The notes below the pieces were generated by a model. That model was not told the origin of the DNA. It made no database searches and saw nothing but the letters and a program-made list of their open reading frames with translations. 64,000 bases of DNA from Escherichia phage Turkey3, in the sequence record PQ471515.1; one strand, written 5' to 3'. The position numbers were made by a program, and so were the translations under genes. How positions within the stretch are numbered: the first letter of the stretch is position 1; each line of letters opens with the position of its first letter. Below, in pieces: positions 31,445-31,473 of this stretch.

Positions 31445-31473
31445 TGGGACAAAGACGTTTTTGGTGCTATAAT
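31445..31473 (+). promoter_or_regulatory. Early/middle promoter TGGGAC-N17-TATAAT for gene 55
   Basis: -10 TATAAT preceded by TGC; the whole region is near-identical to the promoter at 36152..36180. Confidence 0.5.

Follow-up and report, generated by a model that had tools for sequence, protein, structure and literature searches.

A 64,000-nt stretch of the genome of Escherichia phage Turkey3 (PQ471515.1), referred to below as the window, contains a family of promoters in which a host-type extended -10 element, TGnTATAAT, is paired with a nonconsensus box, TG(A/G)GACA, at the position of the -35 element. These variant sites are a real, nonrandom promoter class that extends over the whole genome. 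The best-supported mechanism, though unproven, is a cascade of phage sigma factors in which a divergent phage protein of the sigma-70 family, g519, would read the box; judging from sequence comparison, we give this reading a probability of roughly 0.45. The comparisons establish the family itself, its geometry and spread over the genome, its conserved orthologous sites with clade-specific boxes, and a conserved phage sigma whose predicted helix type matches the type of box; which protein reads the box, and when the class is active, we infer from the observations set out below.

With an 8-kb probe, the window was identified as part of a Rak2/121Q-like jumbo coliphage, with 99.7–99.9% identity to the phages WPEC5, WPEC3, EC.P1, fEgEco12, and Ecwhy_1, about 86% identity to phages of the 121Q/PBECO4 type, and weaker matches to jumbo phages of Klebsiella, Salmonella, Cronobacter, Erwinia, and Yersinia. 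To represent the complete genome of this phage, we took the whole sequence of fEgEco12 (374,733 bp), in which record positions 159543–222830 correspond to the window. Rak2/121Q jumbo phages lack an RNA polymerase, and the hosts of all Rak2-like phages compared here belong to the Enterobacterales.

Variant Promoters in the Window

The pattern GRGACR-N16-TAYAAT occurs six times in the window, always on the plus strand, against an expectation of 0.10 from 100 dinucleotide-preserving shuffles, none of which reached six matches. A weight matrix trained on fEgEco12 and applied to the window with a threshold of at least 15 bits finds eight sites, again all on the plus strand (0.09 expected), and the motif TGRGAC taken by itself is depleted (21 occurrences vs. 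47 expected). Five of the exact matches are promoters that a preliminary description of this DNA had named, at 31445–31473, 36152–36180, 50094–50122, 54042–54070, and 62941–62969; the sixth, at 62864–62892, had not been listed there and gives gene 32 a second promoter in tandem. The matrix adds the sites at 57637–57665, ahead of an RNase H-like exonuclease gene, and at 8468–8496, ahead of a ClpA-like gene. The -10 hexamer is TATAAT or TACAAT at every family site, and TGn, described earlier as frequent, is present in seven of the eight matrix sites. The shared box of the preliminary description was likewise recovered, but its spacer of 17–18 nt was not: the distance is 16 nt from GRGACR, and the longer values are obtained only by counting from the leading T or TT. 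The promoters are listed here together with the gp55-like gene and one contrasting site; all lie on the plus strand.

31445–31473, plus strand: promoter of the gp55-like late sigma gene; TGGGACA, 13 nt, TGC, TATAAT; 27.2 bits
31531–32370, plus strand: gp55-like late sigma gene; PHROG 12791, "sigma factor for late transcription," E = 9e-153; PHROG 234, E = 1e-16
36152–36180, plus strand: promoter in an island free of open reading frames (ORFs); TGAGACA, 13 nt, TGC, TATAAT; 34.9 bits; orthologous site kept in all clades
50094–50122, plus strand: promoter of a small ORF (50185–50490) and the DNA polymerase gene; TGAGACA, 13 nt, TGA, TACAAT; 16.4 bits
54042–54070, plus strand: promoter of a sliding-clamp-like gene (54138–54869); TGAGACA, 13 nt, AGA (thus without TGn), TATAAT; 27.3 bits; orthologues known
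57637–57665, plus strand: promoter of the RNase H-like 5'-3' exonuclease gene; TGGGAAA, 13 nt, TGC, TATAAT; 25.5 bits
62864–62892, plus strand: first tandem promoter of gene 32; CGAGACA, 13 nt, TGA, TATAAT; 37.1 bits; overlaps the end of the ORF at 61578–62882
62941–62969, plus strand: second tandem promoter of gene 32 (gene start 63058); TGGGACG, 13 nt, TGA, TATAAT; 32.6 bits
8468–8496, plus strand: hybrid promoter of the ClpA-like ATPase gene; full TTGACA with the family geometry (N16, TGA, TATAATg); 26.4 bits
46455–46483, plus strand: contrasting nonmember ahead of a GIY-YIG cassette; plain TTGACA-N17-TATAAT without TGn; below 12 bits in the matrix

The promoters near 8469 and 46455 had both been described as pure TTGACA/TATAAT; this is correct for 46455, with its N17 spacer and no TGn, but the site at 8469 combines TTGACA with the architecture of the variant family.

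The promoter map also corrects gene starts that had been extended too far. The longest-ORF starts of the gp55-like gene (TTG at 31429) and of the RNase H-like gene (57654) run upstream through the genes' own promoters; the likely true starts are 31531, an in-frame ATG behind GGAG, and about 57727, respectively, as in the annotation of fEgEco12. The small conserved ORF at 50185–50490 (plus strand, 101 aa), located between its variant promoter and the DNA polymerase gene, matches PHROG 639, "transcriptional regulator," at 1.6e-7, and its product matched no Pfam family; it occupies the same place in RaK2, GAP32, 7t3, and Yen9-03.

Promoter Classes across the Genome

The family is also borne out over the complete genome. 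In fEgEco12 the exact pattern GRGACR-N16-TAYAAT has 20 unique occurrences, none of them on the minus strand, and a scan with the iterated matrix yields 41 sites, 40 of which are on the plus (transcribed) strand; they are spread over 56–318 kb, one further site being located in the terminal repeat, and the majority lie between genes or at the ends of genes. The spacing is rigid, with 20 sites at N16, one at N17, and none at N15, and TGn is present in 16 of the 20 exact sites and 36 of 40 matrix sites. When the hexamers upstream of every TAYAAT were counted at a spacing of N16, TTGACA (22) and TTGCAA (10) were followed by GGGACA (9) and GAGACA (8), the last two with an expectation of 0.06 each; at N17 the commonest was CTTGCA (18).

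The logo of the family reads t-G-R-G-A-C-A, 11 uninformative positions, R-T-G-(A/C)-TATAAT-g, and then T-purine 7–8 nt past the -10 element, which coincides with the expected start site. Positions -36 to -34 carry 0.42 (T), 1.30 (G), and 0.94 (R) bits, and each position between the box and TGn carries at most 0.32 bits. Canonical sigma-70 promoters have a TTGACA-like element at 17 ± 1 nt; the box keeps only the GACA half of TTGACA, at 16 nt, with G and R instead of T and T at its first two positions. An origin of the sites as copies of one repeat or of a mobile promoter cassette was ruled out: their flanks are unrelated, and so are their spacers, which means that the sites are not copies of one another.

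Three classes with a sigma-70-type -10 element were distinguished in fEgEco12:

TTGAC-type class: 57 sites; TGn in 25%; 0–50 kb and 250–353 kb, in arrays of small genes
CTTGCA-N17 class: 18 sites; TGn in 0%; first 50 kb
GRGACR-N16 class: 20 sites; TGn in 80%; mainly 50–250 kb

The early-type TTGACA and CTTGCA promoters are located in the terminal repeat and the small-gene regions, in a distribution complementary to that of the variant class. The two promoter flavors that had been proposed therefore differ in the -35 box, in the frequency of TGn (80% vs. 25% and 0%), in location, and in the genes downstream. Behind the variant promoters we find the genes for the gp55-like sigma, the DNA polymerase operon, the clamp, gene 32, primase, exonucleases, topoisomerase II, and nudix and other nucleotide enzymes. 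Such a position, ahead of genes for replication and nucleotide metabolism, of the gp55-like sigma gene, and of the island, fits a middle class of promoters, a role that is well supported, if indirectly.

Conservation and Clade-Specific Boxes

The neighborhood of gene 32 was compared among E9.1 (121Q-like), RaK2, Yen9-03, GAP32, 7t3, and nine IMG/VR genomes, and that of gp55 in 13 genomes. The same promoters are present in every related genus compared, and TGnTATAAT is kept throughout. Orthologous sites line up in 121Q/E9.1, RaK2, 7t3, GAP32, CBB, BF, Yen9, and metagenomic genomes, ahead of gp55, the island, the small ORF and DNA polymerase operon, the clamp, RNase H, gene 32, primase, and exonuclease genes, as well as after the UvsW helicase gene; the pair ahead of gene 32 is tandem in all clades. 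What changes is the box. The gp55 promoter has an orthologue with the clade's own box in 13 related genomes; the site at 57637 is the same in fEgEco12 and E9.1 and takes clade-specific versions in RaK2, 7t3, GAP32, and Yen9-03; and the orthologue of the 50094 promoter has TGGAACA in fEgEco12 and the respective clade's box in E9.1, RaK2, GAP32, Yen9-03, and 7t3. Four types of box are observed:

This phage and 121Q/E9.1: TG(A/G)GACA, N16
7t3 and two metagenomic genomes: T(T)GGGACA, mostly N17
RaK2: CTGAAC(A/G)
GAP32, CBB, Serratia BF, Yen9, and three metagenomic genomes: TG(A/G)AA(C/T)(G/A), with TGG before the -10 element

The box of the GAP32/CBB/Yen9 type (TGRAACG) retains only two of six sigma-70 consensus positions and yet is equally uniform. 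Since the box varies among clades but every host belongs to the Enterobacterales, region 4 of the host sigma-70 appears insufficient to account for it and a phage-encoded reader seems to be needed; by this comparison, the reader of the -35-position box is probably encoded by the phage.

The preliminary description had further pointed to near-identity of the gp55 and island promoters around the -10 region as a sign of co-regulation. The shared 14 nt, TTTGGTGCTATAAT, are real, but are not kept in 121Q (TTTTTGGTGC vs. AAGTTTGTGC), so that the identity is largely class consensus and chance. That the two promoters belong to one class is nevertheless upheld, since both are present with the clade's box in every related genus; it is this shared membership that is conserved.

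A Phage Sigma Factor as Candidate Reader

Outside the window, in the genomes 99.7–99.9% identical to it, a sigma-70-family protein of 322 aa is encoded, g519 of fEgEco12. It contains the domains Sigma70_r2 and Sigma70_r3, with a match to RpoD_Cterm at 2.4e-27, and its best solved relatives are SigB, SigA, RpoS, and RpoD. A homologue is present in every Rak2-like phage. This includes Ecwhy_1, from which the genome paper of fEgEco12 lists sigma Gp519 as absent (PMC13070987); in contradiction to that listing, tblastn finds it there with 99.7% identity, annotated as "similar to RNA polymerase sigma factor." The protein evolves fast, with 59% identity to its counterpart in 121Q and 37–39% to those in RaK2, GAP32, and CBB, compared with 74–95% for the gp55-like protein across the same genomes. 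Its gene has early-type TTGAC promoters upstream and a variant promoter directly after it.

An AlphaFold model of g519, based on 34 homologues, has a C-terminal domain with helices at 241–249, 254–264, and 275–280, a beta-hairpin at 283–289, and a long helix at 294–314; this confidently predicted helix-hairpin-helix ends in RSSLHRKYSEAMERLRK (pLDDT 79–88). MAFFT aligns the helix RSSLHRKYSEAMERLRK with the recognition helix of sigma-70 (RERIRQIEAKALRKLR; TRERIRQIEAKALRKLR). The start of the predicted helix and the box of the same phages compare as follows:

This phage and 121Q: helix start (A/S)RSS(L/I)HR, box TGRGACA
PHA46/7t3 type: helix start SRTSLHR, box TGGGACA
RaK2: helix start VRGTLHY, box CTGAACA
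GAP32 group (GAP32, CBB, BF, Yen9, four metagenomic genomes): helix start SKATLSR, box TGRAACG

The four predicted helix types thus match the four box types exactly. In regions 2–3, the PHA46-type sigma has 60% identity to the GAP32 type and 40% to the sigma of this phage; as it nonetheless shares helix start and box with this phage, the agreement does not simply follow overall relatedness. In sigma-70, R584 reads the C at -31. The Arg or Lys aligned with this residue is kept across all four helix types, and so is the C at -31.

In the cascade that we favor, the host sigma-70 holoenzyme would transcribe the early regions, including an operon ending in g519, from promoters of the TTGACA and CTTGCA types. 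The g519 protein would then replace sigma-70 on the host core enzyme, and its divergent region 4 helix would read TG(A/G)GACA, rigidly placed 16 nt upstream of TGnTATAAT, with transcription starting at the conserved T-purine 7–8 nt downstream. Transcription of the genes for replication and nucleotide metabolism, of the island RNA, and of the gp55-like sigma gene would be turned on in this way, and the gp55-like sigma would in turn drive the TAAATA late promoters of the structural genes, completing a three-step sigma cascade. More broadly, Rak2-like phages may carry co-evolving, distinct pairs of sigma factor and promoter, in which a predicted region 4 helix-turn-helix (HTH) interrupted by a beta-hairpin reads the clade's box (TGRGACA, CTGAACA, or TGRAACG) 16–17 nt from a host-type extended -10 element, as the middle tier of a three-sigma cascade that also drives a conserved structured RNA of about 300–400 nt; we put this forward tentatively, at somewhat short of even odds. 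If the sigma does read the box, the clades would represent naturally orthogonal sigma/promoter pairs usable with the Escherichia coli core enzyme, and would show how -35 specificity evolves while the -10 element stays fixed.

Several observations weigh against g519 as the reader. Sigma-70 reads TGnTATAAT through W433, W434, Q437, T440, H455, and E458 (E. coli numbering); at the corresponding positions, these phage sigmas all have T, T, M, Y, Y, and V, and still the -10 and TG elements are canonical sigma-70 elements, identical in all clades. Host sigma-70 should by itself be able to use a promoter with TGnTATAAT and a GACA half-box. Pfam detects no region 4 in g519, and hhalign of g519 against sigma-70 supports the alignment no further than the first HTH helix, where an insertion ends it; the register of the helix consequently rests on MAFFT, the sequence pattern, and the AlphaFold model. 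The covariation of helix and box comes from about four lineages and partly follows phylogeny, and two further sigma variants, SHSTIHR (P0023) and SRSAIHR (P0011), are on contigs with only one or two TGn promoters each (TGGGATG and TGGGACA/GGGATA), which are compatible but uninformative. In the clade with the SHSTIHR helix (P0013/P0023), the residue aligned with R584 of sigma-70 is histidine, for which the sigma model would predict a different base at the C of the box. We note, too, that a literature search turned up neither a transcriptome nor mapped transcription starts for any enterobacterial Rak2-like phage (Asteriusvirus, RaK2, GAP32).

Alternative Readers of the Box

Because the residues with which sigma-70 reads the -10 and TG elements are replaced in the phage sigma, because the lineages are few, and because sigma-70 alone could suffice, the main rival is a model in which sigma-70 is retained on the extended -10 element, a phage protein disables or repositions its region 4 in the manner of T4 AsiA or P23-45 gp39, and a phage DNA-binding activator reads the clade's box; early and host promoters that depend on a -35 element would be shut off and TGn promoters favored. 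This generalizes the idea of the preliminary description, which had compared the variant sites with the MotA-dependent middle promoters of T4. As a statement of membership the comparison fails: neither a MotA box nor a MotA or AsiA homologue was found, and the box is located where sigma region 4 reads the -35 element and covaries with the predicted phage sigma helix. In its general form the model accommodates the canonical -10 and TG elements, the strong enrichment of TGn in the variant class compared with the early classes, the absence from the phage sigma of the residues that read these elements, and the need for some phage factor, given that the box varies by clade and the sigma-70 of the hosts does not; the small conserved protein with a weak PHROG "transcriptional regulator" match, encoded right behind a variant promoter, would be available as a factor. 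Against this, the box is at -35 with an invariant 16-nt spacer, as expected where one polypeptide reads both elements, no additional element is conserved in the interval from the box to the -10 element, tblastn finds no MotA or AsiA homologue, and the annotated regulators have no MotA, AsiA, or informative Pfam domain. A conserved phage sigma would moreover be left without any promoter class: 7-mer enrichment over 262 upstream regions gave only ribosome-binding sites, terminator fragments, early boxes, TATAAT, and the late TAAATA, and no further orphan class that could be assigned to g519. We regard retention of sigma-70 with an activator as unlikely, though a serious contender.

The sites could also be ordinary host sigma-70 promoters of the extended -10 kind with a weak half -35 element (xxGACA) and no phage factor, the box being due to common descent or to tuning of promoter strength. 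GRGACA does keep four of six consensus positions, the -10 and TGn elements are optimal, and the ClpA-like promoter combines this geometry with a complete TTGACA. However, positions -36 to -34 are informative with nonconsensus bases where drift or reversion to TT would be expected, the two-of-six TGRAACG box of GAP32, CBB, and Yen9 is no less uniform, the unrelated spacers speak against copying of the sites from one another, and the type of box changes among phages whose hosts share sigma-70; we consider this explanation improbable. Mechanisms outside the four named here are given a smaller share still. The last of the four, a chance or compositional artefact of an AT-rich genome, has in its favor that TATAAT-like hexamers are common in DNA of 37% G+C (676 TAYAAT on the plus strand of the genome) but is practically negligible, being ruled out by the shuffles (6 vs. 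0.10 and 8 vs. 0.09) and the strand bias (40 of 41), and contradicted by the intergenic or gene-end location of most sites, the conservation of orthologous positions across genera, and the depletion of TGRGAC alone in the window.

The ORF-Free Island and the gp55 Leader

The predicted promoter at 36152 marks the ORF-free island as a dedicated transcription unit:

36181–36560, plus strand: candidate structured RNA behind the 36152 promoter; supported by alignment and RNAalifold; no consistent ORF

The 300–400 nt behind the promoter are conserved at the nucleotide level across all Rak2-like clades, with invariant blocks that include ACCCGTTAG, CACGGCAATACGGCAC, and GCTAAGGGAGTTT, and the ORFs in this region are inconsistent between clades. 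Compensatory changes occur in 25 of the 47 pairs that RNAalifold predicts, in agreement with the candidate RNA proposed in the preliminary description. An Rfam search of the window and the island returned no credible match. From these comparisons, the island looks like an undescribed structured RNA of at least 300 nt.

The 5' leader of the gp55-like gene contains a hairpin at 31486–31502 (plus strand), GGTAC-aaggaat-GTACC. Its stem shows compensatory changes, to TAAAAC...GTTTTA in the GAP32 type and GGGAC...GTCC in the 7t3 type, and the loop A(A/C)GGAT is kept; the hairpin is possibly a translational or processing signal.

Early-Type and Late-Type Promoter Elements

The predicted promoter map has three tiers: early TTGACA/CTTGCA, middle TGRGACA with TGn, and late TAAATA. 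The late motif occurs 20–70 nt upstream of structural genes at about 20 sites in the window, on both strands. Examples of (n)TAAATA are at 2814, 38051, 42392, 43275, 45146, and 48339 on the plus strand and at 31440, 25395, 24434, 20870, and 8463 on the minus strand. The gp55 promoter at 31445 is back-to-back with a minus-strand motif of the late type at 31435–31440, and the promoter at 57637 with one at 57629; several such pairs of TAAATA and an opposite-strand variant promoter are seen, at 31440/31445, 8463/8468, 57629/57637, and 36094/36152. A T4-like late motif TAAATA was already noted for CBB (PMC5259590).

Among the early promoters, one family has a second nonconsensus box and reads aaaaaGTACTTGCA-N17-TATAATgttttacatc, usually with GCG, CTG, or AAG right before TATAAT (fEgEco12 1685–20102, terminal repeat, L002); none of its 18 copies has TGn. 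Relatives of this terminal-repeat family read GTATTGACA...GTACTGTATAAT, and GTAC recurs in them. At fEgEco12 positions 315208, 318802, 321845, 326467, and 327050 (L007/L008), a -35 element TTGACT is located inside a G+C-rich hairpin, gGGTTGACTTcggtcaGCCCtttTGCTATAAT. These terminator-promoter units repeat ahead of small genes, and in Yen9-04 and a metagenomic relative such units with TTGACT in a hairpin also follow the sigma gene.

Comparison with Known Promoter Classes

The middle promoters of T4 resemble the variant class in having a good sigma-70-type -10 element, often with TGn, a nonconsensus element in place of the -35 element, and replication genes downstream. In T4, the MotA box, (a/t)(a/t)(a/t)TGCTTtA, is centered near -30, 11–13 nt upstream of the -10 element, and AsiA disables or repositions region 4 of sigma. 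Here, there is no TGCTTtA box at -30 but a box at -35 with a fixed 16-nt spacer, and this phage group, unlike T4, encodes a full sigma-70-family protein. A tblastn search of the whole of fEgEco12 with T4 MotA and AsiA gave best E values of 6.8 and 2.3, respectively, although very remote homologues would escape it. Membership in the MotA/AsiA class was ruled out, there being no MotA box and no homologue by tblastn.

Bacillus phage SPO1 uses a sigma cascade, with gp28 followed by gp33/34. In phiEco32, gp36 is a phage protein of the sigma-70 family (PMC8948821). The likeness to both would be that an early phage sigma-70-family protein redirects the host core enzyme and a second phage sigma serves the late genes; the SPO1 and phiEco32 sigmas, however, use -10 elements unlike TATAAT, whereas here the -10 element matches the host consensus and phage specificity is confined to the -35 box.

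The Thermus phage P23-45 protein gp39 reportedly brings about a switch from -35-dependent to TGn promoters. Its target promoters and the extended -10 promoters of E. coli share with the variant class TGnTATAAT and a poor -35 element. They differ in having no conserved box at the -35 position, whereas the box described here is conserved within the genome and differs between clades.

Closest are the promoters of related phages. In PA5oct, a distant relative, TTGAC/TATAATA promoters were identified by RNA-seq. For CBB, MEME predicted a "divergent RpoD-like promoter" with no assigned factor, Promoter 1 (Buttimer et al. 2017, PMC5259590, Table S6), with 18 sites that are mostly ahead of DNA-synthesis genes and one ahead of the gp55-like gene (PMC5259590); motifs of this type also occur in GAP32 (Abbasifar et al. 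2014, as cited in PMC5259590). Our literature search found no description of the class for the 121Q/Asteriusvirus group. The sequences of Table S6 have the 29-nt geometry observed here (7-nt box, 16 nt, TATAAT, usually TGn), and the class belongs to the same phage clade and occupies orthologous positions, ahead of DNA-synthesis genes and the gp55-like sigma gene (CBB Porf_244). The box consensus is different, TG(A/G)GAC(A/G) here, which does not conform to the TGAAACG consensus, against TG(A/G)AA(C/T)(G/A) in CBB and GAP32; position 4 is G here and A there, the TGGAACA of the fEgEco12 orthologue showing that the two versions are neighbors, and the base before the -10 element is A or C here and G in CBB and GAP32. 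The family of the window is the form taken in the 121Q group by a class of promoters that earlier work had predicted in CBB and GAP32.

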